Virus record (IMG/VR): IMGVR_UViG_3300027519_000001
DNA length: 64,000 nucleotides
DNA from: a virus
Direction: 5' to 3' (one strand)
Below the pieces are notes generated by a model. It was not told the DNA's origin. It made no database searches and saw only the letters and a list, made by a program, of their open reading frames with translations. A program made the position numbers and the translations under genes. Positions 985-63,811 of the stretch are shown one piece after another (the first letter of the stretch is position 1; the number at the start of each line of letters is the position of its first letter).

Positions 985-1032
985 GGATTAACCCCTTGAT
1001 TTGCAATTTGCTAATTTACTATTATTAAGTGG

Positions 1033-1045
1033 TATTTACAGTTTT
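1033..1045 (-). promoter_or_regulatory. copy 1 of conserved motif AAAACTGTAAATA (minus-strand reading)
   Basis: The + strand reads tatttacagtttt. It lies 48 nt upstream of the ATG at 984, in the divergent intergenic region. Confidence 0.5.
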
Positions 1046-8119: not shown

Positions 8120-8155
8120 CTATAATTTTATAGAAACATTAATGGAAGTTTTATA

Positions 8156-12560: not shown

Positions 12561-13196
12561 ATGCTTACAAAAATTCCTGTAACTATGGTACGATCATCAG
12601 GTGACGAAGGCAGTAGTGTAGTTGTCAAAAACGGAAAGCTTGCTACGTCTAGCGAAGCAGTCGATACCACCAGCGAAATCGAAGCTGGATTCTATGACCA
12701 AGGAAGCGGCATTCTTACACTAACTTTTGCTAGCGGTAATGAGATTGCTATTACTGGTTTTCCGACATTTGATAGCATTCCTCAGGGTCAACAAGGGCCT
12801 CAGGGAGAAGCTGGTGAAGATGGTCGTGATGGACGCGATGGTAAAGACGGCGAAGTTGGTGACGAAGGCTGTGTTGGACCTATTGGACCTACAGGCCCTC
12901 GTGGAGAAGATGGACAAAATGGTCGTGATGGACAAGTTGGACTTCCCGGTCCTGCTGGATGTGCTGGACCTATGGGCCCTCGTGGACTACAAGGAAAGAA
13001 AGGTGAGCGTGGTGATGTAGGCCCAACTGGACCTACTGGTGCTACAGGTCCTACGGGCCCACGTGGAGAGCAAGGCCCTGCTGGAAACATCAACATAGTT
13101 ATTAGTAGTACAGACCCTGGCTCTAGCATAGGACCTGGCTCTATTTGGGTAAATCCAGATATAGGTCAGTACGATGATGACTTAGACCAATTTTAA
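12561..13196 (+). CDS. collagen-like fibre protein (211 aa)
   Basis: 33 GXY triplets. It shares the N-terminal module FYDQGSGILTLTF..ITGFPT and the C-terminal DPGSSIGPGSIWVNP motif. Confidence 0.85.
   Translation: MLTKIPVTMVRSSGDEGSSVVVKNGKLATSSEAVDTTSEIEAGFYDQGSGILTLTFASGNEIAITGFPTFDSIPQGQQGPQGEAGEDGRDGRDGKDGEVGDEGCVGPIGPTGPRGEDGQNGRDGQVGLPGPAGCAGPMGPRGLQGKKGERGDVGPTGPTGATGPTGPRGEQGPAGNINIVISSTDPGSSIGPGSIWVNPDIGQYDDDLDQF
12786..13082 (+). repeat. collagen-like GXY tract (33 triplets)
   Basis: G76 to A174, with Gly at every third residue. Confidence 0.95.
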
Positions 13197-13208
13197 GAGA
13201 GACTTATT

Positions 13209-13703
13209 ATGGCTATTACAAAAGCTAGCTTGAACATGATTAGTGGTGGTTCTACTGTAGGTAACGTAGAATCTTCGGGTAGAGGTTTGTCTATTGTAGC
13301 AGATGATGAAGTAGCAGACACGTTAGAAGGCTACTATGATAATACGTCTGGTACTCTTACTCTAAGCATCCCAGGTTATCCAGTTCTACGTATAAATAAC
13401 TTCATGACGCAAAGTGATGTTGGTACTGGTAAAGAGGGACCGCAAGGTGTTTCTGGTAACGCTGGTATTAATGGACTTCTTGGCGAAAATGGATTGCGCG
13501 GTGAGCGTGGATGCAGAGGTCCTCGTGGCCCAGTTGGAGAACGTGGTGTTCGTGGTGCGCAAGGAAAGCAAGGGGAACAGGGACCTATTGGTGCTACTGG
13601 ACCTCAAGGCGAACATGGATTAGATGGTAAAGTAAGTATCTATATAACTACAGAAGACCCAGGTCCTGTTGGTGCTGGTGCTTTATGGATTAAACCTCGT
13701 TAA
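13209..13703 (+). CDS. collagen-like fibre protein (164 aa)
   Basis: About 22 GXY triplets. N-terminal YYDNTSGTLTLSI module and C-terminal EDPGPVGAGALWIKP. Confidence 0.85.
   Translation: MAITKASLNMISGGSTVGNVESSGRGLSIVADDEVADTLEGYYDNTSGTLTLSIPGYPVLRINNFMTQSDVGTGKEGPQGVSGNAGINGLLGENGLRGERGCRGPRGPVGERGVRGAQGKQGEQGPIGATGPQGEHGLDGKVSIYITTEDPGPVGAGALWIKPR
13428..13634 (+). repeat. collagen-like GXY tract (about 22-23 triplets)
   Basis: Periodic Gly from G74 to about V142. Confidence 0.9.
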
Positions 13704-13712
13704 GGTAGTGCT

Positions 13713-16700
13713 ATGACAACTACAAGACTAACAGTTCGTAATGCACAAGATAATGGTTGGCTCGACCAATGCAGCAGCGAGTTCTATTTCCGTGACGGGT
13801 TTAATAGTACGTGGATACGTTTTTATCCAGACCAAACACAAGTAAGAGATAGCGGAAACAACACTTGGATGCAGGTGGACTGTACTTTTGACGATGTACT
13901 AGACGACCCGTGTGCGAACCTAGCTATGCTTACTTCTCTTACTTGTTCTAACTCTATTCCAATTACAGAAGCAGGTTCTGGTGATGGTAGTGGTAGCGGT
14001 GGAAACGAGTTTGATATACTACGTGGATATCCAGAAGGCTACGACTTACCAGACGCAGGTCAAGCAGGCTTTGGACTAGAGAGAGCTTATGGTACGTATG
14101 AAGGGCAAGTTATCAACAGACCTGGAATCGAAAACACAAAAGAAACGTACACTAAGCCGGGCACTAATTCGTTCCTTGGAAGAGGTAGCTATGAAAATCC
14201 TAGTTATCTATCCACTCATACATTTTCTAATGGAAGTGCTATCACTGAAACAATTTATGAGTTAGGTGACAGAGGTGGTATATTTGAAATTCTTTATGCT
14301 TGTTACCATGAACAAGGTATCTCTATCGATGTATACTATCTTGGTGCGTTAATTGCTTCCACATGTGGCAGAGTTACGGGTAGAGGAAAACTAGAGTTCG
14401 GTCTAGACCCTGCAATTGGTTCTGGTGAAGACAGAGTAATGATACGAGTTCGCGGTGAAGACAAGTGCAGATGGATGTATTCCACTATAGGCCCTAAGTC
14501 ATTTCTTACTCTTCAAGATTTTGAACCCGGCAACAATAGACACTTAGCGCAAGTTCGTACTACTGAGTATATTGGTACTAGCTTGTTTCCAGCACCTGCG
14601 CATAGCCGTGTAACTCCATTCGAGAACAGAATTACAGATGGACAATATTGGGTAGAGTACGTTCACACAGTTGGACTAGTTGACCCTGCTACAGGTCCTT
14701 ATATTCTTCATCTTAATTATGAGACTTGGGAAAATTCAGACTGGGTTGAAGTCTATCACGGCGGTGAACGTATTGCTTCAACTATGGGAAATAAAGACAC
14801 TGACGGATTACTATCTATTGTGTTCGACCCTTGGAGATTTGCAAACGCTGTTCCTGATATCGTAGTTAAAGTAATGGCTAGACAGCGCGAGTACGGAGCA
14901 GATATACTTTCACAAGAGTACATGCTTTACGATCCAAATACTCGTGGATACAAAGAAAATCGTTGGCCGTGTGAAGTACCAGAGTCAGGTATAAATAGTG
15001 CTGGACACCACAGTACAGAAGACCATTATTTAATGAATGACCTCGATAACGGAGTAGCTTCAATTAAAGTTACTGGATATGGAGACTTTACTTATACTGC
15101 TAGCGTATTTAACAAGAAAGGTGAATTGATAACTGCTAAACGTAGCAGAGGTACGACTTTCTTACAGTGGTTCAGACTTGAAGAAGATGTAGGCTATGAA
15201 GACTTGCGAGAAATCAGTGTACGTATCGATTGCCCTATTGACAGCAGTTGGGCTTATTGGGTTGGCTGTTATATTCCTCTCCTAGATGTAGAGATTGATG
15301 ATCAGGAAGTTCCAAACTGTCCTGACGTTCAAATAGCTATCAACAGTATCACAGTAGCGGAAGGTTCTACAGCTAAATTTACAGTAGGTCTTAACTATCC
15401 AATTGACGAAGACTTGTCTTTGAATTACAGAACGGAAGATATGACTGCTAGTAGCGAAGCCGTTGCAGCAGGCGAAGTTAACCCGTACCCTCTTTTCAGA
15501 GATAACAATGATGTATCTTCGGTTGTCTACTCAGATGACGATTTAGGATATACATTGATGTTAGAGGCTGACCCTCATAGACTATACGACATTGACAATT
15601 ACTTACAAACTGCTACTACTCAGAATGCTACTGATGGAAGAAGTGACGTAGACCGCAGCGTATCAACGTATGCCGAACTTAATGACTATCAGAAGATGAT
15701 AGTTAACATGTTGAAGCACCGTCTTGGTTCTTTATCTAATAAAAAGCTTTTAGTGGTAACCCACCAGCGTATTCAATACTATGCAACTCCGTATGACCCT
15801 GATCCAAGGGTGGAAGAGCGAGAGTATGAAATAGTTTACCAAATGTCTACAGTTATGGACTTCTTCACTAAGTCACTGACAAACATTTACGGTATTCAGG
15901 TTGATGTTCATGTAGTTAATGAGTTTGACTCGCATGGTACAGTTAAGCAAGGCAGCTTTACTAATCAAGATGCAACCTATAGCTCGCCTAAAAATATTGT
16001 AGGTAACTATGATATTATTGTATCTGATCAGTTTAGTGAGTGGAGACACCACGTTAAAGAAAATGCAGGAGTAGATACTTCTAATCATTTCTTGAATAAG
16101 ATGTTTAGTCTTGAACAAGGTACTGCTTTTGGTGTTGCTGTAGCTAGAGCAGCTAAAGGTTCTAAACCTATGGTAGTGATTAGCGCAGCAGCTTTCGATA
16201 TCAGTACCGCAGGTAACTACTATAGATTTGCAAATGCTCATGCGAAAGACCTTATAAACTCTTTCAACATAAAAAGTCATGTAGACATATTAGCGTCAGA
16301 TTCTACTATTAGTAGTCCGTCTGGTGCGCGTAGTGTATCTGTTCAGCAAATAAAAGACAAAGCAGGCGATAGCTATCTATTTGAAGACTTGTCTGGGTCG
16401 GGTTCATTTGAAAACCAAAGCGGTGTTAAAAGAATGACAAAGTTCGTTCTTGCTAACACAGGTTCAGATGGAAGCCCTTCTACACCTATAGCTAATGCTG
16501 ACTATCAAGCCAAGACAGGAACTTTAACTATTCCAGCAGGCGCAGGTAGTGGTACTATTAGCGTCAATACTTTTGCGGACAGTGAACGTGACCCGAATGA
16601 GCAATTTAAAGTTATCATCTACGATGCGAGCGTTGGAGCTATAATTCAAGATGAAGGCATTGCTACTATTGTAGAATCTTCTGCCCCTGTTCAAGGAGAT

Positions 16701-23360: not shown

Positions 23361-24292
23361 AGAAACTACTAGCAGGTTTACTACTGGCACTAAGCTCGTC
23401 TGCCCAAGAAGTAGATGATATAAACACAATTTACTTGGTGTCTAGTAGACCTCTAGCAAGCTTCTACAGTCACCCTCTAAGTGCAAACATTGTTAGAAAT
23501 ACTGACAAGGATGTTTACGCACTTTACATAACCCTTGGATACGGAGACTACGGAACATCTAGCGAACAGCTTATGCATTCGGTAGCTCTGGATATCCAGC
23601 GTGTAGACCCTCAAATGATTATAGTAGATGAAGTTGATGCTACGTCATATCTACTAACTTTACTCCCTGAAAAATACAAAAACATAACTTACTTCATTAA
23701 CAGAAGCTTTACTGACGGTATACCTAGATCGCGATTGTTTAGAATCGAAAACTTAGGATTTAAGATAACTTCTTTAGTATCTGCAATGAACTTGTTCCCT
23801 GACACTTACTATATTCTATATGACACTACAGGATTGACTGCAAGAGATAGCTATAACTTAAAAAACAGCTTGCAGGCTATAACAGGTTCAGTAAAGTCTT
23901 TCGAAGTGTCAAGTGTCAAACAACTGGAAAAACTACTGACTACATTGAACGTAAATCAAAGAGGTGTAATCATTAATAATATGATGGCCTTAACTGATGA
24001 CGAATTTGGTAGCGTAGTTAAGATGCAAGAGATTAAAGAAATACTGCAACGTAAAAACTCTAAACACCTATCTATAGGCTTTAGCTATCTTCCTGAGATA
24101 GACAACGAGTGCTTAGTATTTCAACTTGATTACGGTTCTGTAGTGAACGATTTTATAAGCAACAACATAGAACCCGAAGATATGAACCCGCTGCCGTTCA
24201 GAGTATACGTAGATAAAAGTAGAATGCGTTCGCTCGGATTTAAAAAGAATTACATTGCAGCACATGAAGATATAGATGTGTTAGTTGAATGA
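23357..24292 (+). CDS. secreted protein with cleavable signal peptide (311 aa)
   Basis: MKKLLAGLLLALSSSAQE is an N-terminal signal. ATGA coupling to the fibre gene. Confidence 0.65.
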   Translation: MKKLLAGLLLALSSSAQEVDDINTIYLVSSRPLASFYSHPLSANIVRNTDKDVYALYITLGYGDYGTSSEQLMHSVALDIQRVDPQMIIVDEVDATSYLLTLLPEKYKNITYFINRSFTDGIPRSRLFRIENLGFKITSLVSAMNLFPDTYYILYDTTGLTARDSYNLKNSLQAITGSVKSFEVSSVKQLEKLLTTLNVNQRGVIINNMMALTDDEFGSVVKMQEIKEILQRKNSKHLSIGFSYLPEIDNECLVFQLDYGSVVNDFISNNIEPEDMNPLPFRVYVDKSRMRSLGFKKNYIAAHEDIDVLVE

Positions 24293-36997: not shown

Positions 36998-38083
36998 TTA
37001 AACCCAAAACAATTGATTAAATTCTAAGTCTTCTTTCCAACGCTTTAGTGCAGCATTGTCAGGCTTACCCATTTTCAACTTGCTAAGAGACAATGGAACG
37101 TTCTTAACATCAGTTTTAATTCTAGCAAGCTTTCTGCTTACTTCGAAATTAGGACAAGGAACAGGTTCTTTTAAAGTAGGATGATCTACTTTCTTTCCTT
37201 TCTCGTTCACAATCTTTACAGGCTGTGGAACACCAGCAGCAGTAAGCGCTACTTTTCTATCGGGATGACCTGTAATGCGACCGTGCTTCTCAATTATGTT
37301 ATCGAGACTTCCCCAGCGGTCAAGAAGCTTGATAGCAGTAGTTGCACCACAACCTGGGATACCAGCAATGTTGTCAACTTTATCACCATCCATAATTAGA
37401 TAGTCAACGTACTGGTGGGGATGAAGACCGTCTTGCCCGTACATATTATTTTTAGTGTACAGTTTAGCTGGTGAGTTTTGTTGTTCAGGTTGCCATAACC
37501 GAATATGATGCTTAGTCAATAACTGCTTGAAGTCTTTGTCTCGACTATGAATCATTCGAAGACAACCTTTCAATTTCCAAGCAAGTGTACCAAGTATATC
37601 ATCGGCTTCGACAGGTTGATTAATCATGCGGCCGTCTAGTATAGTAAATCCAGCTAGCTTGCACAACGTTTTACAAATTTCAATCTGTTCGTGTAAGTCT
37701 TCATACGTATGTTCACTTACTTTACGATTGCCTTTATAAGATCGTTCTTCTTTCTTTGGAAAGAGAGCCTCTACTAATTCAGGTTCTTCTTTTGCCCACT
37801 TAGTAAAAACATCATATCGAAACGTTTCTTTACGTGGAATGTCAAAACAGATAACAATATACGGTACTTGCTTCTTAGACTGAATAAGAGTATACAGACC
37901 GTTTACCATGTTAATAAACCCTTTCACACCGTTGGTAGGAATACCATCTGACGTATGAAGAACAGGAGTAGCATAGTAAGCTCGATTGACCCAGTTGTTA
38001 CCATCTATTAAATGCACTATTGGAAGTCGTGCTTTGACTTGTGGTTGTTTCTTTGCCTTCTTAGAGGCTCCAAATTCGCGCAT
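36998..38083 (-). CDS. 5'-3' exonuclease / flap endonuclease (Pol I N-terminal domain type)
   Basis: PIVHLIDGNNWVNRAYYA, PVEADDILGTLA and DNIAGIPGCGATTAIKLL (H3TH). It carries an 18 aa basic N-terminal extension. Confidence 0.85.
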   Translation of the reverse strand: MREFGASKKAKKQPQVKARLPIVHLIDGNNWVNRAYYATPVLHTSDGIPTNGVKGFINMVNGLYTLIQSKKQVPYIVICFDIPRKETFRYDVFTKWAKEEPELVEALFPKKEERSYKGNRKVSEHTYEDLHEQIEICKTLCKLAGFTILDGRMINQPVEADDILGTLAWKLKGCLRMIHSRDKDFKQLLTKHHIRLWQPEQQNSPAKLYTKNNMYGQDGLHPHQYVDYLIMDGDKVDNIAGIPGCGATTAIKLLDRWGSLDNIIEKHGRITGHPDRKVALTAAGVPQPVKIVNEKGKKVDHPTLKEPVPCPNFEVSRKLARIKTDVKNVPLSLSKLKMGKPDNAALKRWKEDLEFNQLFWV

Positions 38084-38116: not shown

Positions 38117-38129
38117 TATTTACAGTTTT
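38117..38129 (-). promoter_or_regulatory. copy 2 of motif AAAACTGTAAATA
   Basis: It lies 33 nt upstream of the FEN ATG and overlaps the stop codon (38120-38122) of the upstream gene. Confidence 0.55.
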
Positions 38130-38635
38130 TTAATATCTAACATCGTGTCCCTGTAAGACTGAGATTTGAATATTCGATACACTGGTAAATACGGAGTGTG
38201 TATAATGTCCATAGCATACTGATAAAAAGACCCGTACGATAAGTTAAACCAACTATAACCTGCACGGCCGTGAATCATCATGAATTGCTCTAACGAATCA
38301 TAGTCAATTTGCTTATGCGTAGAATAGAAAGGAATTGAGCCTATTCTGTTTTTGCCTGTACCGAGGACAATAAGATTTCTTACATTACGTTTAAGAATGC
38401 GCAACTGTGATTTAGTCGGATTCTCTACAATGACATTATCAGAAAAGATATGAAGATCTAGAAAGGAATTAAGAGAGGAGCGAAAGAGGTCTAAGCCTAC
38501 AGAGTTGTGACGTAGTTTTTTATTATGTGTGTTGCCATACGATACGTACGGTTCATTATGTATTTGACAATGCTGTGGAGAATCAAAGCAGCAGCCACAA
38601 CGGGCCACTGCTTCTATTTTAGTTTTCGTAACCAT
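38120..38635 (-). CDS. hypothetical protein (171 aa)
   Basis: ATG at 38635. The track start at 38653 is a GTG. Confidence 0.6.
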   Translation of the reverse strand: MVTKTKIEAVARCGCCFDSPQHCQIHNEPYVSYGNTHNKKLRHNSVGLDLFRSSLNSFLDLHIFSDNVIVENPTKSQLRILKRNVRNLIVLGTGKNRIGSIPFYSTHKQIDYDSLEQFMMIHGRAGYSWFNLSYGSFYQYAMDIIHTPYLPVYRIFKSQSYRDTMLDIKKL

Positions 38636-38933
38636 AGACAACTTCTTTGTCACTGTCTATTCGTTTGGATTCTATCTTACTAGAAACCCAGTCATATACA
38701 GATTGATAGTTATCGTTAAACAGATTTCCATTTAAGTAAACTATGATGAAGTTTTTAGGGTACTCTAAAGGATACAACTGCTCATACGAGTAAAAGATAG
38801 ATTCTTTGTACTTGTCTGCATCTGCTTTATTTCCAGATACTAAAGCAACCGTAATAATACCCTGCTTGTCATTGGTTCTAATATTGTGAACACTAAGACA
38901 TTGTTGAGTGAAGAGGCGTACTAGACCTTCCAC
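38619..38933 (-). CDS. hypothetical protein (104 aa)
   Basis: ORF in the operon. Confidence 0.55.
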   Translation of the reverse strand: MEGLVRLFTQQCLSVHNIRTNDKQGIITVALVSGNKADADKYKESIFYSYEQLYPLEYPKNFIIVYLNGNLFNDNYQSVYDWVSSKIESKRIDSDKEVVYGYEN

Positions 38934-43063: not shown

Positions 43064-43096
43064 AATATGCCTCTCCTTTTATTTACTGATAAATTA

Positions 43097-48373: not shown

Positions 48374-48919
48374 TTATTGCTTATACACCAACTTTTGTTT
48401 CATAAAAGAAACCTGTGGCATTTGGGTTTCAAACTGTTTACACCATTCCATAATCAAAGACTGATCTTTGTTCTGTAGGTTGTATCTCTTTTTACACTTT
48501 TTGTCATTATTATAAACAAAGGCATTTACGCAGGCATAAATGTTTTCAAGAGCTTTCAAGCTAGATACAACCAAGTTTGATTCAATGTTAAAGTTATTTC
48601 GCATGAACCAAATGATTGTAGAATCAGGCAAATTCTTATCTTGATTAGTTACAATGAACTGGTACGTCAACCACAAACAAAACCGAACATGATCAGTGTT
48701 GTTTATAGCTTTTGTGTCAGTAGCTCGACGATTTTTATTAGCTACTTGTGTGCCTGACTCTACTTCTTTACTTACTTCGTGCATCGTAGATTTGCCTATG
48801 CGATTAGGCATAGACACTACTACGTTCTCATTCAAAGTAAGAAGAAACAACGCTTCTGCTTGATGTGAATAAAGCTTTCTCGTTCGGTTAAGAGACAAGG
48901 TCTGTGTTTGAGTTTGCAT
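48374..48919 (-). CDS. hypothetical protein (181 aa)
   Basis: ORF in the operon. Confidence 0.55.
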   Translation of the reverse strand: MQTQTQTLSLNRTRKLYSHQAEALFLLTLNENVVVSMPNRIGKSTMHEVSKEVESGTQVANKNRRATDTKAINNTDHVRFCLWLTYQFIVTNQDKNLPDSTIIWFMRNNFNIESNLVVSSLKALENIYACVNAFVYNNDKKCKKRYNLQNKDQSLIMEWCKQFETQMPQVSFMKQKLVYKQ

Positions 48920-48931: not shown

Positions 48932-50098
48932 TTACATTAAGCCTAACTTCCGCGCCATACTAGGAAGTGATATCTCTAGCAATGACTCAACTGTAGTGTT
49001 CAGATACTTACTGACAATATCCAAAAGCTCTTCACGGGTTTTGCTATCCATAAAATCCTGTGTAGATTTTAATTCACTACGAAGATATTTATTCTTGAGA
49101 AGCCAACTACCAAAGAGAGGACAGTCGGTTCTGAAAAACAAGCTGATTAATTTACCATGCCTTGTATAAACACCGTACTTACGTAACAACTGATCAACAC
49201 TAAAGTCTATGTCTTTTGAACGTTCCATGTTAAGTCTAAATGTAGAGCTAAACATCGAATCATAAGGTGTGTCGATATCATCACCTGACATAGATTGTAA
49301 GTTAAGTTGGTTTTCTGATACTACACGCAAGGAAAATACATAACTTCCACTTGCGTCTTCACCTTCATTGACCAGTCTTTCACGTTTGTTAGACGTATAC
49401 AGCTTTATAATATTTATTGCTGCGTTATCAATACTTCTACGTACAATGTTTAACGACTTCTCAAAAGGGTAATCGTTAGGCTTTGACTTATAATGTGCTT
49501 TGATTGCACTAAACATTAACTCAGATGAAAATTCATCATGGGTCATATTGTAGGTGCGTTTAATAAATCTTAAACGCTTCTCTACTACTCGGTCGATGAA
49601 ACGATATACATCATCTAACATCATACCAAATTCTTCAATACATGCATTCATAGATTCAGGCGAATAGAACGATGTGTCGGCTGTGGAGTACATAGAACGA
49701 ATAACAGTACGCAACGAAGAATCACCGTACACCTTTTTGCTTAGCATGTATCTCAATGTTTCACAATCCTGTTTAGCTATATTGAACTGACAGCGATAGA
49801 AGTCATAGACAACAGGACGTAAAACCTTTCTACTGGAACATAAGTAAATAGCGTAGAATCGCATATTTAGAATTACGTATCCAGATTTGCTTATAGCAAG
49901 CCTAAACTTACTGGGAGTTACTTCTAGATTTTTGAAATCTATTATTGAACTCAGATTTGTGTGAAACTGTTTAATTGGAGTTTGAAGACATATATGCTCT
50001 AGGCAGTAGGTGAACACAAGATTAAATTCCTTGCTGTTCACCTCAACTCCTAACAGTTCAACAATCTGGTCACTCAGACTCTTGAACTTTTTATACAT
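48932..50098 (-). CDS. hypothetical protein (388 aa)
   Basis: Long ORF. Confidence 0.65.
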   Translation of the reverse strand: MYKKFKSLSDQIVELLGVEVNSKEFNLVFTYCLEHICLQTPIKQFHTNLSSIIDFKNLEVTPSKFRLAISKSGYVILNMRFYAIYLCSSRKVLRPVVYDFYRCQFNIAKQDCETLRYMLSKKVYGDSSLRTVIRSMYSTADTSFYSPESMNACIEEFGMMLDDVYRFIDRVVEKRLRFIKRTYNMTHDEFSSELMFSAIKAHYKSKPNDYPFEKSLNIVRRSIDNAAINIIKLYTSNKRERLVNEGEDASGSYVFSLRVVSENQLNLQSMSGDDIDTPYDSMFSSTFRLNMERSKDIDFSVDQLLRKYGVYTRHGKLISLFFRTDCPLFGSWLLKNKYLRSELKSTQDFMDSKTREELLDIVSKYLNTTVESLLEISLPSMARKLGLM

Positions 50099-51016: not shown

Positions 51017-51503
51017 TGCTGTATCCTTTAGTTCTTAATGTATAATGTATGCAATAATCGATAACTTGTGACATATTAGTTACGCCAGGCAAATCTTTCT
51101 TTAAACGATCTAACAACTCACGAGTTGGTAAATCTACCTCTGGATTCGCCAACTTAATTCGCTTCTCCCCATCTGATATAGGCGGATTAAGTAATGAACT
51201 AACTAATATCTCTAGATATGGTTGGGCTCTTTGTTCTGATTCCCAACTGTCCCAATATCTGCCCGGTGGCTCATTCCTATTTCCTCGCAAAAACGAAGCG
51301 GCTGCATCTGCTTTTGCATGGAGTGTTGTGTGACAGTCTCCGTCAATAGGAATCTGCAAGCTATCTTTTCCACCAAGGGCTTGCGGCGTAGTATGATGCC
51401 AATGGATGTTTCTAGTCCATTGATGACATATACAACATTTAGTGAAGTCACCATCTGTCTCAGGCGGTAACTTATTTACAACCGTCTTTGCGGTGTTAGA
51501 CAT
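50910..51503 (-). CDS. HNH endonuclease (197 aa)
   Basis: CCICHQWTRNIHWHHTTPQALGGKDSLQIPIDGDCHTTLH is an HNH core. The preferred ATG at 51503 overlaps the upstream stop by 8 nt. The 3' end overlaps the next gene by 107 nt. Confidence 0.7.
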   Translation of the reverse strand: MSNTAKTVVNKLPPETDGDFTKCCICHQWTRNIHWHHTTPQALGGKDSLQIPIDGDCHTTLHAKADAAASFLRGNRNEPPGRYWDSWESEQRAQPYLEILVSSLLNPPISDGEKRIKLANPEVDLPTRELLDRLKKDLPGVTNMSQVIDYCIHYTLRTKGYSNEELNQRTTASKRNHDGIPNVWGMRRTKRRKSDRR

Positions 51504-52902: not shown

Positions 52903-53021
52903 ATTATTTTATCCTTTGGAAAGCGCGAAGCTTGAATGGGATATTTCCCAAGTACCTTAAAGGTACGATGTTGCAAAAGCATAGTTCTAAATTATGATTT
53001 TCAGATACCACACTTTGCAAC

Positions 53022-53050
53022 ATTATATCACACATGAATATTGCTTTCAA
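53022..53050 (-). promoter_or_regulatory. sigma70-type promoter (minus strand)
   Basis: Read on the minus strand: TTGAAA (53050-53045), a 17 nt spacer ending in TGA (an extended -10 TG), then TATAAT (53027-53022). Confidence 0.65.
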
Positions 53051-53071
53051 TGTGTTTTGTCCCGCTATATT

Positions 53072-54655
53072 TTATTTAACACGGGACTTGTAGGCTTTGA
53101 ATTGCTCTTTTGTCTTAGTAGCAATTCTAGGCGTTGGATCTTCTTGGTCTTGCTTGTATTGTCGAATCTCTGCCTTTAACTCTTTAATCTTTTGAAGCAA
53201 TGCTGGCTTTTCCAACTTAGCTAGTTTACGAACTTGTAGGTCAAGTAAAGCCTTTGCTTTTTCAGCGGAGATTTTAAGTTTAGAAATAAGGAACTTATCA
53301 GGGTCCTTACTATCTAGTGACTTGATGATTAGCTGTCTGTTATCTACGCCAAAGATAAGAAGTTCAGTTCTATCGATTTGCGCTAAGCATTCATCTATCA
53401 AGGCTTGCAGGTAATCAATCTCTAACTGTACGCGATACTTAATCCAGTTATTGAAGAATGATACAAAGCTAGACTTAACAAACATGTTGGAGTCATCTGC
53501 TCTACGAACCGTAAAGCCTAAATCGTATGATTCGCTAGATACTAACTCTTTAAACACTTGCTCTGCTAAATCGAAGAACTTCTCTTCTGAAATTCCACGA
53601 GCAGGCTTTATATAGAAGTACGCACCAAGAGGCCCTGACTTAGGATTCTTTTCGTTTGAATCGTCACCAGCTTTAGATACTGCATCCATTTCTGCAAACT
53701 TAGCAAGCTTTTTCTGTATGACGTTTGAACTTCTAAAGCCTGGAGAGAAGGACTTAATCTCAATTAGTTTGTTCTTCCAGTCTGCATTTACTTCTGGTGC
53801 AAACTTGATACTTCCTTTGCCGTACTTAATAAGATTAGCAACGTCTTCGTCTTCGCTAACCTGAACACCACCGTAAGAATAGTCTATACGTAAATGCTTA
53901 GCACAGTTGTTAGGACCTAGTTTCTTATTAGCTTTGAACGCTTTCAATCCAAGAAGAACAAGTTCGTAAACTCCATCTATGTTAAACGGAGGGCTGTCAG
54001 ACTTAACACCAAAACCAATACCAGAGCTACCAAGAACAAGAAGCATAGGCAGCGTAGCAGGCAAGTACAACGGTACTTTCTCTGAGTTATCAAAGTTATC
54101 TACCATTGGAACAGTTTTGAGATAACCCTTATCCAATAGAAAGATATCACTCATTGCGCTAAGTCGTGCTTCTGTATAACGCATAGCAGCTTGGTTATCA
54201 ACAGGAGTACCCCAGTTACCTTGTCCATCTACCAATTGTGGAGATAGCTTATAGTTAACAAGAGTTGCCATTGCACCATAAGCAGCTTGGTCGCCGTGCG
54301 GGTGGTACTTACCAAGAACGTCACCGATAGTACGAGCAGACTTTTTATACTTAGACTTTGAGTTCAAGCCAAGGTTCTTCATAGCCCATAAAATGTAGCG
54401 GTGAACGGGCTTTAGTCCATCACGAAAATCTGTGATAGACCTTTCTTCTACAACGTAGCTACCATATTGTTTTAACGATGTTGCTGCAAAAGAATCTATA
54501 GATATAGAATCTTCTGAGGTCGCTGCCTTACTAGGTGCTTTTCTGCGAGTACCAGTTTTTGTCTTATCACGTAAAGCAGATAAGCTACTTCTTTTTCTCG
54601 TTCTTTTTCTTGCTGGTGGGCTTTCCGCCTCAGTAGCAGACTTTCTTCTTCTCAT
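53072..54655 (-). CDS. type II DNA topoisomerase, cleavage-religation subunit (T4 gp52 / GyrA N-terminal type, 527 aa)
   Basis: RDGLKPVHRYILWAM and YHPHGDQAAYGAM. AMRYTEARL contains the catalytic Tyr. There is no GyrA beta-pinwheel CTD. About 50 aa of basic N-terminal extension. Confidence 0.9.
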   Translation of the reverse strand: MRRRKSATEAESPPARKRTRKRSSLSALRDKTKTGTRRKAPSKAATSEDSISIDSFAATSLKQYGSYVVEERSITDFRDGLKPVHRYILWAMKNLGLNSKSKYKKSARTIGDVLGKYHPHGDQAAYGAMATLVNYKLSPQLVDGQGNWGTPVDNQAAMRYTEARLSAMSDIFLLDKGYLKTVPMVDNFDNSEKVPLYLPATLPMLLVLGSSGIGFGVKSDSPPFNIDGVYELVLLGLKAFKANKKLGPNNCAKHLRIDYSYGGVQVSEDEDVANLIKYGKGSIKFAPEVNADWKNKLIEIKSFSPGFRSSNVIQKKLAKFAEMDAVSKAGDDSNEKNPKSGPLGAYFYIKPARGISEEKFFDLAEQVFKELVSSESYDLGFTVRRADDSNMFVKSSFVSFFNNWIKYRVQLEIDYLQALIDECLAQIDRTELLIFGVDNRQLIIKSLDSKDPDKFLISKLKISAEKAKALLDLQVRKLAKLEKPALLQKIKELKAEIRQYKQDQEDPTPRIATKTKEQFKAYKSRVK

Positions 54656-54686: not shown

Positions 54687-54699
54687 TATTTACAGTTTT
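54687..54699 (-). promoter_or_regulatory. copy 3 of motif AAAACTGTAAATA
   Basis: It lies 31 nt upstream of the topoisomerase subunit ATG and overlaps the stop (54698-54700) of the upstream ORF. Confidence 0.55.
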
Positions 54700-55234
54700 A
54701 GCAATCACTACAAACTACGTGATCAGTGTCAGTACTTTCACCACTTGGATTGCCGTGAAGCGACGGACAAGCTTTAACACTTATATCTCTAAACAGTTTG
54801 TACAAATCAATATATTCAGGATTAGGAATTGTGAATGGCTCACCCTCTTGCCAAAATTTCTGATAGTGAGAATGTGATTTAAAAGGGCTCGTTTTAATCC
54901 AGTTCTCAGTATTAACAAACTCGTTGAAACCTTCCTCTACGTGAACACACTTCGAAACAAGGTCTTCGTAAGTAGGAGGTAGCAACTTCTTTCCAGTAAG
55001 ATTAAGAGCTTTGCCAAACTTACGGACTGTCCTATCATTTGTTATAACTATGCGAGAACGATACAAAGTAGAAATTGACCCAGGTACTATTATTTGCTTA
55101 GAGTCTTCATCGACAAAAGCAGGCAAGCTAAACCAGCGTTGTGTATGTGCATGGTTAATAGGACGTGACCCAGGGTCTAAGTACAAAAGAACTTTACCAT
55201 CAAATTCTGTTTTTGAAATCTCATGTATACTCAT
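54698..55234 (-). CDS. hypothetical protein (178 aa)
   Basis: ORF between the two topoisomerase genes. Confidence 0.6.
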   Translation of the reverse strand: MSIHEISKTEFDGKVLLYLDPGSRPINHAHTQRWFSLPAFVDEDSKQIIVPGSISTLYRSRIVITNDRTVRKFGKALNLTGKKLLPPTYEDLVSKCVHVEEGFNEFVNTENWIKTSPFKSHSHYQKFWQEGEPFTIPNPEYIDLYKLFRDISVKACPSLHGNPSGESTDTDHVVCSDC

Positions 55235-58741: not shown

Positions 58742-59323
58742 TTAGCTTTCGAAATCGAACTCGTCGCCAGCAGCAGCTTTTGAACGGCGACCACGGGCTG
58801 GTGCTTTTGCTTTTGCAGGAGCTTTCGCTTTACCACGAGCAGGTGCTTTTGCTTTTGCTGGTGCTTTACCACGAGCAGGTGCTTTTGCTTTTGTAGCAGT
58901 CTTAGTTGCAGCAGCTTTACCGCGTGGAGTTTTAGCAGTAGTCTTAGTTGCAGCAGCTTTACCACGAGCAGGAGCTTTTGTAGCAGCTTTAGCTTTGCCA
59001 CGAGCAGGAGCTTTAGCAGTAGTCTTAGTTGCAGCAGCTTTACCACGAGCAGGAGCTTTTGCAGGAGCAGCAGCAGGAGCATCTTCCGAAGTCATCTTTT
59101 CAACAAGTACATCGATTAGACCTTGAACGCGGTCGATACCTTTATCGATTTTATTTTGCTGAGTAGTGATTGATTTAGCAAGGCGAGGATTTTCAACTTT
59201 TTCAGCTAGCGCTGCAAGTTGTGCAGAGATAGAAGCAAAGCCTTCCATCGATTTTTGAATTTGACCTACTTTAGTTCCAGCAGCTTTAAAGTCAGTCGCT
59301 TTAAGTGATACCATTTTCGCCAT
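58742..59323 (-). CDS. histone H1-like / AlgP-like lysine-alanine-rich DNA-binding protein (193 aa)
   Basis: An N-terminal helical 80 aa is followed by about 11 copies of (A/T)KAPARGKA. The C-terminal tip is acidic-aromatic (GDEFDFES). GGAG RBS. Confidence 0.7.
   Translation of the reverse strand: MAKMVSLKATDFKAAGTKVGQIQKSMEGFASISAQLAALAEKVENPRLAKSITTQQNKIDKGIDRVQGLIDVLVEKMTSEDAPAAAPAKAPARGKAAATKTTAKAPARGKAKAATKAPARGKAAATKTTAKTPRGKAAATKTATKAKAPARGKAPAKAKAPARGKAKAPAKAKAPARGRRSKAAAGDEFDFES
58769..59077 (-). repeat. imperfect tandem repeats encoding KAPARGKA(A/K)ATK units
   Basis: Repeated gctttaccacgagcagg(a/t)gcttt(t/a)gc blocks are visible on the + strand. Confidence 0.85.
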
Positions 59324-59350
59324 TTTTTATTCTCCATTATTGTAAGAGTG

Positions 59351-59369
59351 AGGGGGCGGGCAGCCCCCT
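59351..59369 (-). promoter_or_regulatory. GC-rich hairpin in the leader of the H1-like gene
   Basis: AGGGGGC-(5 nt)-GCCCCCT is a 7 bp perfect stem. No U-run follows on the minus strand. Confidence 0.55.
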
Positions 59370-59420
59370 GTAATTAAAAGTAAAAGTTAGTTATTTAGAT
59401 TTAGAGATTAAACGGCGATA

Positions 59421-60359
59421 TTAATTATCGTCTTCCCAATCGTCTTCGTCATCTTCAAGCTCGTCTTCGTCTTCATCGATTTCGCCTTCGAAGTGTTCTT
59501 CAAGCGCATCGTATGCATCGTCGTAAGAGACCTTGCGACCTTTAACCAATTCAAGTTTCTTGGCTAGAGCGATAACTTCTTTTTCGCTCATTTCTTCAAG
59601 ATCCGGCGCTTCGTCCTCTTCTTCTTCAAGCTCGTCGTCTTCTTCTTCAAGCTCTTCGTCTTCGCCTTCAGCAAAGTGTTCATCAAGAAGGTCAAAAGCC
59701 TTATCAGCAGTCATGCGACCTTTGCCAAGTTTTAATTTCTTAGCAAGAGCAATTAGCTCTTTGTCGTCCATGCTTTCAAGATCTGGAACTTCGTCCTCGT
59801 CTTCTTCAAGCTCTTCGTCTTCGTCTTCAATTTCACCAAGGTGTTCATCGGCTAGCTCTTGAAGTTTTTCATCAGAAGCTTTGTTTAACTTAGCTTTGGT
59901 GATACCGCGAATACGTAAACCTGCAAGCTCTTCGATAATCGCTTCACGATCAAATTCGTCGTCAAGCTCTTCGTCTTCGTCTTCTTCAAGCTCTTCGTCT
60001 TCTTCTTCCAAGTGCTTGTCGGCAAGCTCTTGAAGTTTTTCATCAGAAGCTTTGTTTAGCTTAGCTTTGGTAATGCCGCGAATCTTTAAGGCAGCTAAAG
60101 CTTCAATGATTTCGTCGCGGTCAAAGTCTTCTTCAAGCTCTTCGTCTTCGTCTTCTTCAAGCTCTTCATCTTCATCCGCTTCAACAGCTTCACCAGAGAC
60201 TGAAAGACCAGCGGCTTCAAGAATTTCAATAGATTCCGCGTCACCGTCGTTAGCCGCTTCTGAAAGACCAACTACTAAAGACTTTAATAGCTCGATTGCT
60301 TCGTTAGTCTTCTTAGCAGTGCGCTTTGCAGGGGCTTTTGATTTTGCATTTCTTGGCAT
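59421..60359 (-). CDS. hyper-acidic protein with four HeH/SAP/Rho_N-like motifs (312 aa)
   Basis: Basic N-terminal tag MPRNAKSKAPAKRTAKK. Then two 57 aa repeats and two 60 aa repeats, each holding a short helix-extended-helix-like motif flanked by poly-D/E. Confidence 0.7.
   Translation of the reverse strand: MPRNAKSKAPAKRTAKKTNEAIELLKSLVVGLSEAANDGDAESIEILEAAGLSVSGEAVEADEDEELEEDEDEELEEDFDRDEIIEALAALKIRGITKAKLNKASDEKLQELADKHLEEEDEELEEDEDEELDDEFDREAIIEELAGLRIRGITKAKLNKASDEKLQELADEHLGEIEDEDEELEEDEDEVPDLESMDDKELIALAKKLKLGKGRMTADKAFDLLDEHFAEGEDEELEEEDDELEEEEDEAPDLEEMSEKEVIALAKKLELVKGRKVSYDDAYDALEEHFEGEIDEDEDELEDDEDDWEDDN
59424..59789 (-). repeat. tandem duplication, 2 x about 180 nt (unit PDLExMxxKExIALAKKLxLxKGR...)
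   Basis: Protein-level repeat at aa 191-251 and 252-312. Confidence 0.8.
59790..60125 (-). repeat. tandem duplication, 2 x 171 nt (57 aa unit FDR(D/E)xIIExLAxL(K/R)IRGITKAKLNKASDEKLQELAD)
   Basis: ctcttgaagtttttcatcagaagctttgttta recurs at 59856 and 60027. Confidence 0.9.
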
Positions 60360-60446: not shown

Positions 60447-60983
60447 TTATGCAGCAGCTTCGTCAAATTCAATTTGAACGTCTAGCTTAGGATTAGCCTG
60501 GTCGATTTCGATAACGTCACCAGTTTTTAAATCAGTAACGATAGCGATAGAGCCTGCCATTTCAACAGTACACTTAGGTAGCGCTAACACTTCACCTTCT
60601 TTAATAACACCTAGCATAGTGTGCGAACCTTCTTCACCAATCATATACGCAATGTCTTCACGCTTGATTGTTTTGATAACTACTTTAGAAGAGCCGTGGC
60701 GCTTGTTGGTACGAATAACAACTTTGTCGTTATCAGCAGATAGACAGAAACCAACCATTTGACTAACTTGGTCTTTAGCGCGAACAACAACCGAAGCACC
60801 TACAGATGAAAGTTGCTTAGCACTAAGTTTACCAGTACCCATGTTGTTGATACGACTTTCGTGCTTTTGCAAACGAGAGTTACGAACAAGACCAGCTTTA
60901 GCTACAGCAGTACCAGTCTTACGACCGCGGGCAGGGGCTTTAGCTTTACTAGCAGGGGCTTTAGTTTTAGTATTACGTTTCAT
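60447..60983 (-). CDS. hypothetical protein with basic KAPA/RGR N-terminal tag (178 aa)
   Basis: MKRNTKTKAPASKAKAPARGRKTG, then a beta-rich body. GGAG RBS. Confidence 0.65.
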   Translation of the reverse strand: MKRNTKTKAPASKAKAPARGRKTGTAVAKAGLVRNSRLQKHESRINNMGTGKLSAKQLSSVGASVVVRAKDQVSQMVGFCLSADNDKVVIRTNKRHGSSKVVIKTIKREDIAYMIGEEGSHTMLGVIKEGEVLALPKCTVEMAGSIAIVTDLKTGDVIEIDQANPKLDVQIEFDEAAA

Positions 60984-60995
60984 TTCTTTACTCCG

Positions 60996-61024
60996 AGAAA
61001 AAGGAAGAAGCTTAAAGCTTCTTC
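60996..61024 (-). terminator. hairpin plus U-run (attenuator/terminator) between two genes
   Basis: GAAGAAGCTT-a-AAGCTTCTTC is a 10 bp inverted repeat that encloses the TAA stop at 61012-61014. It is followed on the minus strand by CTTTTTCTC, then the GGAG RBS of the next gene. Confidence 0.55.
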
Positions 61025-62445
61025 ACCAAAAAGATTGGGTTATTGATTACAGCGCTTTCGATGCAGAAGCGGGTGCTTACCAACATCAACTCAGGCGTTG
61101 CATCTTGTGAAATTGATAGAGGAAGAGAATAGTTTTCTTCTTCGTCTTCATCTACATTAGTAAGTTCAGAATCAGATTCATCATTTTCTTCGTCTAAATC
61201 ATCAGATTCTTCATCAGCGTCTTCGTCTTCGTCTTCATCCGACGGGTCAAAGGCTTCTTCTGAGTCTTCGTAGAAGTCTTCGTCTTCGTCTTCGCCGTCC
61301 CAGAATTGCTCGTCTTCAACTAACATCTTGTCTTCTGTATACTTCAAGATATCGCCAAGAGTCACAGTTTCGAAGTCCTGCTCCGTAGTAAGTGCGCGTA
61401 CCATTTCAGTAGCGGCATTGTCTAGGATGGCCTCTTCTGCATCGACAACGTAAACGAATTCAACATCTACATTTAAGTCGGCGTTCATGATTTGCTGTTC
61501 GAAGTATTGAACAAGCTTTGCAGCACGTTCCGCTTTATTCGCTGCACCATTCAATGTAGGTATAGGAAGTAGTTGCGATACTACGATTGTATCAGGGTCG
61601 TCTTGGTGTAGACCGGCAGAAGTAAATGCGTTAAAGCCAAGTTGCTCTGGCATATCTTCTACATCAAGTGGGAAAGGGTTTTCGCTAAGTGCCGAAACAA
61701 AGCGGCGCATTACGAACTGACCCATAGAATCCATCAAGTTAGATTCAGATACAAGATTGAATTCAAGATTGTTGAACTCAGAAGCTTTAGATAAAAGCTC
61801 CATAACTGAATCGTACATCAAACCGCTAGGCTTACCTTCTTTTGGAACAGCGATAGTAAGATTTCGATTGTAAGTAGTACCGTCTTCGGCTTCGTGTACT
61901 TCACGATAATCAATACCTGTATCGATGTTACCAGCAGGAACAATAAACTGCACTACGATACGCGGCGAGTAAGTGTCCATCATATCAACAAACAAGTCTT
62001 TGTTGATTTGCAGTGTGTTGCTAAGGCCCTGACCAAGCTTAATTGCTTCACCAATGTCTACGCCCATACCCATAACAGCGTCTTCGGTACTAAGTTCAAC
62101 ATCAACGTCTGCATTCGCAGTCTCTGTAGTAACAGGGTCTGGAATGTTACTACGTTCTTTTTGTTCAGCGATTGCTTCATCGCGGGCTTCGGGAGATAGC
62201 TTAGCACCCATCGCTACGGCACGCTGACGATCATTTGAATTCGTCACTTCGTTTTCCTTATTATCAGGTTGAGTTATTTCACTAGAACTTTCGTTCTGCT
62301 CAGTATTTACAGTTTCCACATTTGCTTGTGTAACTTGTTCCGCGTCGGCGCTCTTTTCAGAAGGCTTCCAATTTGTTGAATCATGTTCTACTACATTAGT
62401 ATTTGCAGAAACGTTTTCTTTATTTTGATCGTGATCATTAGACAT
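61012..62445 (-). CDS. acidic hypothetical protein (477 aa)
   Basis: Long ORF. The N- and C-terminal thirds are polar or strongly acidic (DEDEDADEESDDLDEENDESD). Confidence 0.65.
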   Translation of the reverse strand: MSNDHDQNKENVSANTNVVEHDSTNWKPSEKSADAEQVTQANVETVNTEQNESSSEITQPDNKENEVTNSNDRQRAVAMGAKLSPEARDEAIAEQKERSNIPDPVTTETANADVDVELSTEDAVMGMGVDIGEAIKLGQGLSNTLQINKDLFVDMMDTYSPRIVVQFIVPAGNIDTGIDYREVHEAEDGTTYNRNLTIAVPKEGKPSGLMYDSVMELLSKASEFNNLEFNLVSESNLMDSMGQFVMRRFVSALSENPFPLDVEDMPEQLGFNAFTSAGLHQDDPDTIVVSQLLPIPTLNGAANKAERAAKLVQYFEQQIMNADLNVDVEFVYVVDAEEAILDNAATEMVRALTTEQDFETVTLGDILKYTEDKMLVEDEQFWDGEDEDEDFYEDSEEAFDPSDEDEDEDADEESDDLDEENDESDSELTNVDEDEEENYSLPLSISQDATPELMLVSTRFCIESAVINNPIFLVKKL

Positions 62446-62461: not shown

Positions 62462-63811
62462 TTACTTAACTTTAATCCAGTTTACAGTTTTTGTACTTGA
62501 TACATCTGCTAACCGGTACATCACGCCGCTATTCGTATACCCGGGTGGAGTATTATTACTCAACTTTAGCGCAGTACGCTCAGGTGTAGACAACGGCTTT
62601 ATTGTTGTAATTGTTTCAAACATAGTACTAAGAAATTTTAGTACTGACTCATGCGGATTGGAAACCCGCTTTAGCTCTTCGTTCCAGTAGCTATACATAT
62701 CGTATGCAACAAATGATAAGCTAGGGACAATATCGTATTCGCGAAGTTTACGTTTCTCTTCCTTTGCTTCATTAACCACCTGCTCATGCTCTTCGTACTT
62801 CTCTACTAGATTGGTAGCTTTACTCAGCATAATAGTAGTGTTTCGGCTTAACCGCTTTTTAGAACTATTATCTACTATGAAGCGTATAGCTTTCTTGTAC
62901 TTCGATCTGTAGTTCTTAACAAAAGCGCTACTAGGATGAGAGCTAGGTAAATCAAAACCATCCATATCAGCAAGTGAAAATACATCTTGATCCAAAGAAC
63001 AACGTATAAGCTGTTTGACCGTAGATTCTTTTCCCCAATACTTTCTAAGCTTGGATAGGTTACGTGCCTTAATGCTCACTATTCCGCTAACAAATAAATA
63101 CGGACCGAATGAACTTAGAACGTTAGAGTCTATTTCCTTTCGAGCAAACTGCATAGCTTGAACAGTAAAGTTCATGAACTTATTATTCACTTTACAGTAT
63201 GCTGCAAATAGGTTTGCTTTGTTTGATGATTTATCTATGCGATAAACCAACGTACACTCTAAACCGTCCAGACTTGGAGCCGCAGAGAAAGGAGGATTCT
63301 TTTGAATAAATCGCTCCGTACTCATTGTACTAAAAGTACTAGCTAACAAATCTTTATAATGCGCTGTTTGTGTATTAAAGTAAAACCAATTCGGGTCTAC
63401 ACTGGCAGAGTTCACCTGCTTCCAATGTTCGCGAAGTATGCGCAACATATTAGAGTAAGAAAAAACTCTTCCATTCACTTTTGGGCTAAACCCTGCTGCT
63501 AAGTGTGTCCATAACAAATGACACTCTTTTGAATGCGGCAGACCTAACCCAACTCGATACAAGCTTGCAATCTTTGTACACACCGTAGGCGAGTACTCAC
63601 TGCTTGCTTGCTTAATTAGACTTTTCAACGTGTGTTTGGATATTCGCAACTCAAACACCTGAGTATGCTTATAAGCTTCACCAGGCACATGAATTTTTAC
63701 AGTTAAAGCAGACCCGTCTAACTTTGGGTCTGCTGGAAAGATTAACTTCTCATGTACAAGTGCGCGAATTCCATCTGGGTCTACTTCGTCAAATATTCGT
63801 ATATATGACAT
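62462..63811 (-). CDS. hypothetical protein with ligase-like nucleotidyltransferase motifs (449 aa)
   Basis: DPKLDGSAL (KxDG), a second AAPSLDGLE, FVAYDMY, SGVMYR, and a C-terminal NWIKVK. This is motif-level similarity only. Confidence 0.6.
   Translation of the reverse strand: MSYIRIFDEVDPDGIRALVHEKLIFPADPKLDGSALTVKIHVPGEAYKHTQVFELRISKHTLKSLIKQASSEYSPTVCTKIASLYRVGLGLPHSKECHLLWTHLAAGFSPKVNGRVFSYSNMLRILREHWKQVNSASVDPNWFYFNTQTAHYKDLLASTFSTMSTERFIQKNPPFSAAPSLDGLECTLVYRIDKSSNKANLFAAYCKVNNKFMNFTVQAMQFARKEIDSNVLSSFGPYLFVSGIVSIKARNLSKLRKYWGKESTVKQLIRCSLDQDVFSLADMDGFDLPSSHPSSAFVKNYRSKYKKAIRFIVDNSSKKRLSRNTTIMLSKATNLVEKYEEHEQVVNEAKEEKRKLREYDIVPSLSFVAYDMYSYWNEELKRVSNPHESVLKFLSTMFETITTIKPLSTPERTALKLSNNTPPGYTNSGVMYRLADVSSTKTVNWIKVK
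62479..62491 (-). promoter_or_regulatory. copy 5 (variant AAAACTGTAAACT) of the motif
   Basis: It lies 33 nt upstream of the ATG at 62445, inside the 3' end of the upstream ORF. Confidence 0.45.

Follow-up and report, generated by a model that had tools for sequence, protein, structure and literature searches.

The window analysed here is the whole 64-kb stretch of DNA (IMG/VR record IMGVR_UViG_3300027519_000001), a piece of an uncultured marine jumbo phage of the Lu11/PaBG/NCTB/Erwinia-Dickeya clade. Virion genes fill its plus strand up to position 30948 (structural genes 1073-30948), and closely packed replication genes occupy the minus strand from 31042, together with a single minus-strand gene at 355-984. 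Our subject is a 13-nucleotide (nt) sequence, AAAACTGTAAATA, hereafter the box, which recurs on the minus strand ahead of genes that include those for FEN and a GyrA-like topoisomerase subunit, and which an earlier reading of the letters (the original prediction) had proposed as a phage-specific promoter. By pattern search and direct reading we recovered four exact minus-strand copies and a fifth, AAAACTGTAAACT, with two mismatches to AAAACTGTAAATA. All five lie where the original prediction placed them, and the distances from the 3' end of the box to the ATG (48, 33, 31, 60 and 33 nt) agree with the 31-60 nt it had claimed. As the original prediction also noted, two copies run into the stop codon of the gene before them: the TAA at 38120-38122, within CTGTAAATA, ends the open reading frame (ORF) at 38120-38653, and that at 54698-54700 ends the ORF at 54698-55234. 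The copy at 62479-62491 sits within the final codons of an ORF of 449 amino acids (aa). The sites and the genes they precede are given below, with scores in bits from a matrix trained only on 16 sites of the related Phage NCTB and applied with a cut-off of at least 15 bits.

1033-1045, minus strand: box AAAACTGTAAATA, 48 nt 5' of the ATG of a 209-aa ORF (355-984); 18.8 bits
38117-38129, minus strand: box AAAACTGTAAATA, 33 nt 5' of the FEN ATG; 17.3 bits
54687-54699, minus strand: box AAAACTGTAAATA, 31 nt 5' of the ATG of the GyrA-like gene; 18.8 bits
60420-60432, minus strand: box AAAACTGTAAATA, 60 nt 5' of the ATG of the 312-aa ORF; 17.3 bits
62479-62491, minus strand: box AAAACTGTAAACT, 33 nt 5' of the ATG of the 477-aa ORF; 19.1 bits, the top matrix match
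48489-48501, minus strand: G-variant box AAAAGTGTAAAAA, inside a 181-aa ORF (48374-48919); 16.7 bits, absent from the original prediction
62304-62316, minus strand: box-like copy GAAACTGTAAATA, inside the 477-aa ORF; 15.1 bits, likewise absent from it
36998-38083, minus strand: gene for FEN, a 5'-3' exonuclease (Pfam 5_3_exonuc)
53072-54655, minus strand: gene for the topoisomerase II GyrA-like subunit (Pfam DNA_topoisoIV)
59421-60359, minus strand: acidic 312-aa ORF, its unit ending at a G+C-rich hairpin (~59350-59370)
61012-62445, minus strand: acidic 477-aa ORF, its unit ending at a hairpin-T terminator (61004-61024)
61004-61024, minus strand: hairpin-T terminator of the 477-aa unit, a 9-bp stem followed by CTTTTTCT

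The two additional matches differ in setting. The box at 48489-48501 lies 122 nt 5' of the start of a DnaB-like helicase gene (48366) and is a candidate internal promoter. The copy at 62304-62316 has no start codon nearby and the peptide context VETVNT; it is uncertain whether it is an internal promoter or a coding coincidence.

In 100 shuffles of the window, the highest multiplicity of any 13-mer was 2-3 and never 4, and the four exact copies of AAAACTGTAAATA therefore exclude chance; the only other 13-mers with at least four copies were coding repeats of acidic proteins. A pattern search allowing two mismatches gave 9 occurrences against 5.4 expected, a count that is uninformative alone because loose matches dilute the signal. 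The NCTB-trained matrix found seven matches at or above the cut-off, against a mean of 0.4 and a maximum of 1 in shuffles. All seven are on the replication-gene strand, five of them are 30-59 nt from a downstream start codon, and the top five are the sites of the original prediction. Its statement that no copy precedes the plus-strand structural genes also stands, as the only plus-strand match above 12 bits (24053-24067) is inside an ORF and lacks the invariant G. A chance repeat or a by-product of coding could be argued from the copies that overlap coding sequence and from one conserved peptide context (VNW), but the shuffles, the NCTB test, the frame-shifted conservation and the contrast between clade and outgroup, the last three set out below, refute it, and we give it virtually no weight.

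A megablast search of GenBank phages with 6 kb of the window found no nucleotide-level relative, and relatives were therefore located by a protein-level search. The closest was Phage NCTB (LT598654, 257,877 bp; GyrA 61% identical), followed by Erwinia jumbo phages of the Yoloswag/Alexandra type (~47%). NCTB positions 50018-113282 are collinear with the window and hold orthologues of 60 of its 69 ORFs, with ~55-60% identity between the proteins. NCTB has been placed in one clade with Lu11, PaBG and Dickeya and Erwinia phages (PMC7412058) and in jumbo subgroup 2.2, which is without a phage RNA polymerase (RNAP) and has sigma factors (PMC7824862).

As an independent test we took the whole NCTB genome with its 301 annotated coding sequences. 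AAACTGTAAA occurs there 16 times, compared with a mean of 1.1 for 10-mers of the same composition, and 11 of the 16 copies lie 15-70 nt upstream of a co-oriented annotated start (background 5.5%, P = 5e-11). The G variant AAAGTGTAAAC is equally well placed. In an unbiased screen of NCTB 7-mers for enrichment 18-75 nt upstream of starts, TGTAAAC, ACTGTAA and CTGTAAA ranked first to third (P ~1e-11) and TAATTTA fourth; TTGCTAT, TTTGCTA and TGCTATA were enriched as well. The orientation of the sites tracks gene direction on both strands, and the genes behind them include those for primase, an SSB-like protein, GyrA, FEN, DNA polymerase I, a QueD-like protein and a clamp-loader neighbour, among others. 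Several NCTB boxes lie directly 3' of hairpin-T terminators, and at many sites the preceding gene ends with the TAA contained in the box.

Positional counterparts in NCTB were found for six of the seven window matrix sites. Boxes are kept before FEN, gyrA and the acidic genes, in the divergent region near the left end of the window and in the ORF before dnaB, and the spacers flanking them are unrelated between the two genomes. Upstream of the FEN orthologue of NCTB, AAAACTGTAAATA stands 38 nt from the ATG, immediately 3' of a hairpin-T terminator and in an otherwise unrelated spacer, and the gyrA orthologue has AAAACTGTAAACA 29 nt before its ATG. The counterpart of the 60420 box is AAAAACTGTAAAAC at 53316, directly after a terminator hairpin. 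For the dnaB-proximal box (48489), the NCTB orthologue has the same word at the corresponding position but read in another frame (K-K-C-K-K versus K-S-V-K), which indicates that the DNA is under selection and not the peptide. The counterpart of the 62479 copy, AAAGCTGTAAAC, changes an otherwise invariant A and is in the same frame (KTVNW versus KAVNW). An NCTB copy that encodes VETVNT occupies a place in the 477-aa orthologue that is not equivalent to window 62304.

Box-like copies also cluster inside the 449-aa and 477-aa ORFs, at window positions 62304, 63191 and 63693 and at NCTB positions 51054, 51263 and 52257. These positions are not equivalent between the two genomes and two of the copies encode VETVNT; internal promoters or a repeatedly used peptide could account for them. 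In the same region, the 178-aa gene (60447-60983) begins right after the terminator of the 477-aa unit without a box (window 60984-61011), and in NCTB a box follows the corresponding terminator ahead of the orthologue; the difference suggests turnover of sites or dependence on read-through of the terminator. Within the acidic 312-aa gene is a tandem repeat of 171 nt in 2.2 copies (59789-60173), and the adjoining 193-aa gene contains 18/36-nt repeats (58790-59074). The commonest repeated 13-mers of the window are GAAGACGAAGACG-type words that encode Glu/Asp runs.

We extended the comparison to clade loci from IMG/VR, retrieved with alignments of GyrA and of the sigma70-family protein that the clade encodes (PMC7412058; PMC7824862), hereafter the clade sigma. 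The core [C/G]TGTAAA is present in intergenic DNA of all clade subgroups, in ~20 relatives with hosts ranging from Pseudomonas to Erwinia. Its form varies by subgroup: AATCTGTAAA, often in tandem pairs, in Erwinia/Dickeya types, AAAACTGTAAATA in two metagenomic lineages and AAAGTGTAAACAG in PaBG, with the variants ATCTGTAAA in Erwinia types and AAAGTGTAAAC in PaBG types. At the junction between the sigma and SSB genes, the core is found 25-65 nt 5' of the SSB start codon in 17 of 21 loci, and PaBG-like genomes carry the degenerate AAAACTGTCAATAA there. We counted a copy as being in promoter-like context when it lay 15-80 nt 5' of the start of an ORF of at least 50 codons that has a Shine-Dalgarno sequence before it. 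Among 18 non-redundant relatives, 57 of 128 copies (45%) were so placed, compared with 11.6% for composition-matched control words (P = 1e-20); among 58 loci of unrelated GyrA-encoding phages it was 28 of 374 (7.5%; Fisher P = 3e-19). The element is thus both conserved in the clade and specific to it.

Erwinia-type relatives have two or three tandem boxes, 25-55 nt apart, before single genes. The last tandem box is followed by a conserved TAATTGAAG, which could be a longer form of the consensus or a leader element common to these genes.

L009, Erwinia-type relative: tandem boxes at 4178/4203 and at 4856/4912
L012, Erwinia-type relative: tandem boxes at 3602/3627 and at 4295/4354
L014, Erwinia-type relative: tandem boxes at 5361/5388/5416

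An alignment of 91 sites from the window, NCTB and the relatives gave the clade consensus a-A-A/t-A/t-[C/G]-T-G-T-A-A-A-y-A, with information confined to these positions. Across these sites there is neither a -35 box nor a second -10 box, as the positions 5' of -4 carry no information and neither does any fixed downstream distance. A weak preference for A, preceded by a G-depleted position, is seen ~8-9 nt 3' of the box, where it would suit a transcription start. Boxes stand a median of 42 nt from the start codon (interquartile range 34-53). The second position after AAA is A in 52 and T in 17 of the 91 sites, and the trailing TA of the window copies, the source of their resemblance to TATAAATA, is not conserved across the clade.

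The surroundings of individual copies bear on what the element does. Comparison with the NCTB orthologue places the start of the plus-strand PAAR-like gene at ATG 1073 and not at TTG 1001; 985-1072 is therefore an 88-nt divergent intergenic region and the 1033-1045 copy is truly intergenic. On its minus strand this region carries the box, and on its plus strand a TAATTTA box. A 67-bp divergent region of NCTB (113283-113349) is arranged in the same way, with AAAGTGTAAAC 38 nt before the ATG, and NCTB has a further box in the divergent region at 6583-6698. These are short divergent regions, in which a promoter must exist. At gyrA, the box is kept in a lineage with 97% identity (L110), and a third marine lineage (L111; GyrA 57% identical) has an early-type promoter, GGTACAAAA-N27-TGTTATAAT, in that slot instead. 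Two different elements in one slot are what would be expected of interchangeable promoters.

These contexts also speak to the alternative that the box acts in the transcript, as a processing site, translational operator or stability element. Such an RNA signal would account for the fairly constant distance to the start codon, and the boxes that lie within upstream ORFs would be transcribed in polycistronic RNA. However, boxes also stand in divergent regions with no co-oriented upstream gene and directly after terminators, and at gyrA in L111 a canonical promoter takes the place of the box. Scans of the window gave no Rfam and no tRNA match, and the box has no palindromic or structural character. 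We regard an RNA-level role as very improbable.

Two further promoter-like classes occur in these phages. The early-type class consists of GG[T/G]ACAAAA, a conserved upstream box, and ~27 nt further TGnTATAAT. The original prediction had set the box apart from a sigma70-type promoter at 53022-53050, and this separation is borne out, as that promoter belongs to the conserved GG[T/G]ACAAAA-N27-TGnTATAAT class. The other class is TAATTT[A/T], frequently in the form ATAATTTTATA or GTAATTTAATA, which stands 25-55 nt upstream of virion genes, is carried by the NCTB sheath and baseplate genes, and is a candidate late promoter. The leader of the window early promoter, ~120 nt long, also holds a TAATTTA box (52988-52994).

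53022-53065, minus strand, window: early-type promoter GGGACAAAAC...TGTGATATAAT, heading the operon with the gp112-like gene
NCTB ~26760, 27720, 39560, 46560, 47700 and 59070: early-type promoters
1012-1018 (plus strand), 8123-8129 (plus strand) and 43090-43096 (minus strand), window: TAATTT[A/T] boxes
NCTB, before the sheath genes 170508-172118 and 210039-211679 and before 235506, 136965 and 103682: TAATTT[A/T] boxes

The existence of a separate virion-gene box bears on the likeness to T4 late promoters that the original prediction had noted. T4 late promoters consist of an 8-bp box, TATAAATA, at ~-13 to -6 with no -35 element, and use the sigma gp55 with gp33 and the gp45 clamp. If the box were a variant of this kind, it would be read by a gp55-like minimal sigma with gp33 and a sliding clamp, coupled to replication. 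The likeness is seen in the window, where the core TGTAAATA is one position off TATAAATA and stands as a single box without a -35, and gp33 orthologues have been reported in group 2 jumbo phages (PMC7824862). The part of the likeness that fails lies in the clade: the conserved portion is [C/G]TGTAAA with upstream A's and the last two bases vary, the boxes stand before genes of replication and nucleotide metabolism and before no structural gene, the structural genes having TAATTT[A/T], and the clade sigma is RpoD-like (~350 aa), not gp55-like. With the wrong gene class, unconserved TATAAATA-like positions and an RpoD-like sigma, the box very probably falls outside the T4 late class, and we consider this reading improbable.

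We therefore looked for proteins that could read the box. According to the literature, phages without an RNAP use their own sigma factors with the host enzyme (PMC7824862, PMC13282480), and a 2026 review states that sigma homologues "likely" direct host RNAP to phage-specific promoters (PMC13282480). The clade sigma is represented by PaBG gp118, which scores 24.1 bits on Pfam Sigma70_r2 and reaches the cut-off; NCTB 12900-13955 encodes its orthologue (1e-77). The gp118 family has more than 200 homologues in metagenomes, many with PF04542, and the protein is encoded in 32 IMG/VR loci. Its profile matches RpoD regions 1.2-2.4, and the top 50 Foldseek matches of an AlphaFold model (predicted local distance difference test, pLDDT, 80) are sigma70 chains. 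The relatives of the window phage thus have a sigma70-family protein, and the absence of an RNAP is reported in the literature (PMC7824862). The box consensus is of a non-host type, stands co-oriented upstream of a coherent gene set, and is co-distributed with the sigma.

A CTGTAAA box also stands before the sigma gene of Erwinia/Dickeya-type relatives, where it overlaps the stop codon of the gene upstream. NCTB, L078 and PaBG types differ in that translation of the sigma gene is coupled to that of its upstream neighbour.

L079, L080, L082, L083, L086, L094 and L102: box before the sigma gene, ~45-60 nt before position 6001

Within the window, 10 small minus-strand proteins were compared with PHROGs and Pfam, and none of them matched a sigma or a transcription factor. 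A second candidate is the gp112-like protein, the clade-conserved orthologue of PaBG gp112 (window 48932-50098, minus strand), which has 388 aa, is all-alpha, and is encoded in the operon behind the early-type promoter at 53022-53065. PaBG gp112 has been reported to show weak HHpred similarity to sigma factors (PMC7412058). The gp112-like protein had no Pfam or NCBIfam match and no PDB match by profile, and its AlphaFold model (pLDDT 80) had no Foldseek PDB match at E <0.3; the published idea of a possible second sigma is neither confirmed nor refuted by these results.

The gp112-like protein enters an alternative in which the box is a site for an activator or appropriator acting with host sigma70 in the manner of MotA/AsiA, or for a non-sigma factor. 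The conserved host sigma70 would be compatible with conservation of the box across hosts; the gp112-like gene, behind an early-type promoter, could be made early; and a sigma gene behind a CTGTAAA box in many relatives is what a cascade predicts. The HHpred similarity of gp112 counts in the same direction. A MotA-type architecture, however, requires a -10 hexamer at a fixed downstream distance, which the 91 sites lack, and the box is asymmetric and strictly oriented, as sigma-read elements are. The failed Pfam, NCBIfam, PDB and Foldseek searches provide no positive evidence that the gp112-like protein binds DNA or RNAP. We consider this family of explanations unlikely, and the narrower proposal, that the gp112-like protein is an unrecognised RNAP specificity factor reading the box in place of the RpoD-like sigma, slightly more so. 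If it did, a three-step cascade would follow, in which host sigma70 serves the early promoters, the gp112-like protein the CTGTAAA genes including sigma, and sigma the TAATTT[A/T] late genes. Such a result would define a new family of promoter-specificity proteins for bacterial RNAP and a host-independent, portable pair of factor and promoter.

Our preferred explanation is a phage-specific promoter. The element is real, oriented, positioned with respect to genes, conserved in the clade and specific to it, and consists of a single box that co-occurs with a sigma-family protein. It is almost certainly a functional cis-element and very probably a promoter. In the fuller form of this explanation, which we think probable, the box is a single-element, clade-specific, middle-class promoter read by host RNAP with a phage-encoded specificity factor. 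The box would act as a -10-like element that starts transcription units for replication, recombination and nucleotide metabolism, and from this gene content we infer a middle temporal class. As these phages have no RNAP, the host core polymerase must be directed by a phage-encoded factor, which would bring it to the box. The leading candidate is the gp118 family, and whether it is the protein that recognises the box we hold to be close to evenly balanced. Such a sigma would recognise TG and TAAA together, in the manner of an extended -10 and without contacting a -35, and transcription would be predicted to start at a purine ~8-9 nt after TGTAAA and to give leaders of ~25-45 nt. The proposal in the original prediction of a regulon-defining promoter or sigma-like factor site stands in so far as the box is oriented, phage-specific and single and a sigma reader is plausible; the promoter role itself is one we infer.

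Several points weigh against this explanation. In the literature on the clade we found no promoter analysis, transcriptome or transcription-start data. Host sigma70 is nearly identical across these proteobacterial hosts, so conservation of the box across hosts alone leaves room for host sigma70 with a phage cofactor. The sigma gene lies outside the 64-kb window, and the IMG/VR contig of the window lineage is absent from the matches of the sigma scan. A sigma gene behind a CTGTAAA box fits autoregulation and a cascade with another reader equally well, and with two non-host motif classes, CTGTAAA and TAATTT[A/T], nothing assigns the sigma to either one. Some copies lie within ORFs with no start nearby (window 62304; NCTB 51054 and 52257), and for the 62479 copy the same-frame counterpart in NCTB means that coding constraint may contribute to its conservation.

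In the course of these searches, two sigma clusters considered as the window genome's own were rejected, as they came from other samples, and contig 3300020471_000004, considered as the window lineage, was rejected as a third lineage. A literature match to pf16/phiPMW proved unrelated.

Most jumbo phages are without a polymerase of their own and are assumed to redirect host RNAP through phage sigma factors (PMC13282480, PMC7824862). Phage-specific promoter boxes are a well-known category, and in kind the box is ordinary. For the clade, in whose literature we found no description of such a promoter, the analysis gives a consensus common to cultured members (PaBG, Erwinia phages of the Yoloswag/Alexandra type and related Dickeya-type loci) and to marine uncultured members, together with a map of three promoter classes (early, CTGTAAA and TAATTT[A/T]) and a list of testable sites. 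The clade is large and environmentally widespread, and the box allows transcription units to be annotated in hundreds of metagenomic jumbo-phage genomes. The pairing of sigma and promoter in polymerase-less jumbo phages becomes directly testable, and could yield an orthogonal pair of factor and promoter usable across Gammaproteobacteria.

Judged from sequence, the box fits a general kind, a promoter class read through a phage-encoded sigma-family factor, and it shares features with several known systems. Like T4 late promoters, it consists of one A/T-rich box of ~8-12 bp, placed at the presumed -10 position and lacking a -35, and host core RNAP with a phage-encoded specificity subunit is the proposed reader. 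The window copies match TATAAATA at 7 of 8 positions, the clade-invariant part being [C/G]TGTAAA. Unlike T4 late promoters, the box combines an invariant G with an A-tract 5' of the core, stands before genes of replication and nucleotide metabolism and not before virion genes, and belongs to a clade whose sigma is a 350-aa RpoD-like protein where the T4 gp55 type has 185 aa. T4 middle promoters, which combine a MotA box at -30 with a sigma70 -10 and AsiA, also serve replication, recombination and nucleotide-metabolism genes and also have an A/T-rich box with TG, but at the clade sites we found no TAnnnT peak and no -10 at a fixed 11-13 bp downstream.

The box also resembles the extended -10 promoters of sigma70 (TGnTATAAT), in that an invariant TG precedes a TA-initiated A/T-rich hexamer and a -35 is unnecessary. 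It differs in that TG abuts TAAA without a spacer base and the position equivalent to T-7 is not a conserved T, and a canonical TGnTATAAT class with its own upstream GGTACAAAA box exists separately in the same genomes. Phage systems based on sigma70-family proteins include Bacillus phage SPO1, with gp28 and gp33/34, and coliphage phiEco32, with gp36. As in these, the clade has a sigma-family protein and no polymerase of its own, a non-host consensus that marks a class of genes, and host-type early promoters. The SPO1 and phiEco32 promoters have a bipartite -35/-10 consensus and mapped starts, whereas the element described here is a single box predicted from sequence; unlike theirs, it is conserved across phages of very different hosts.

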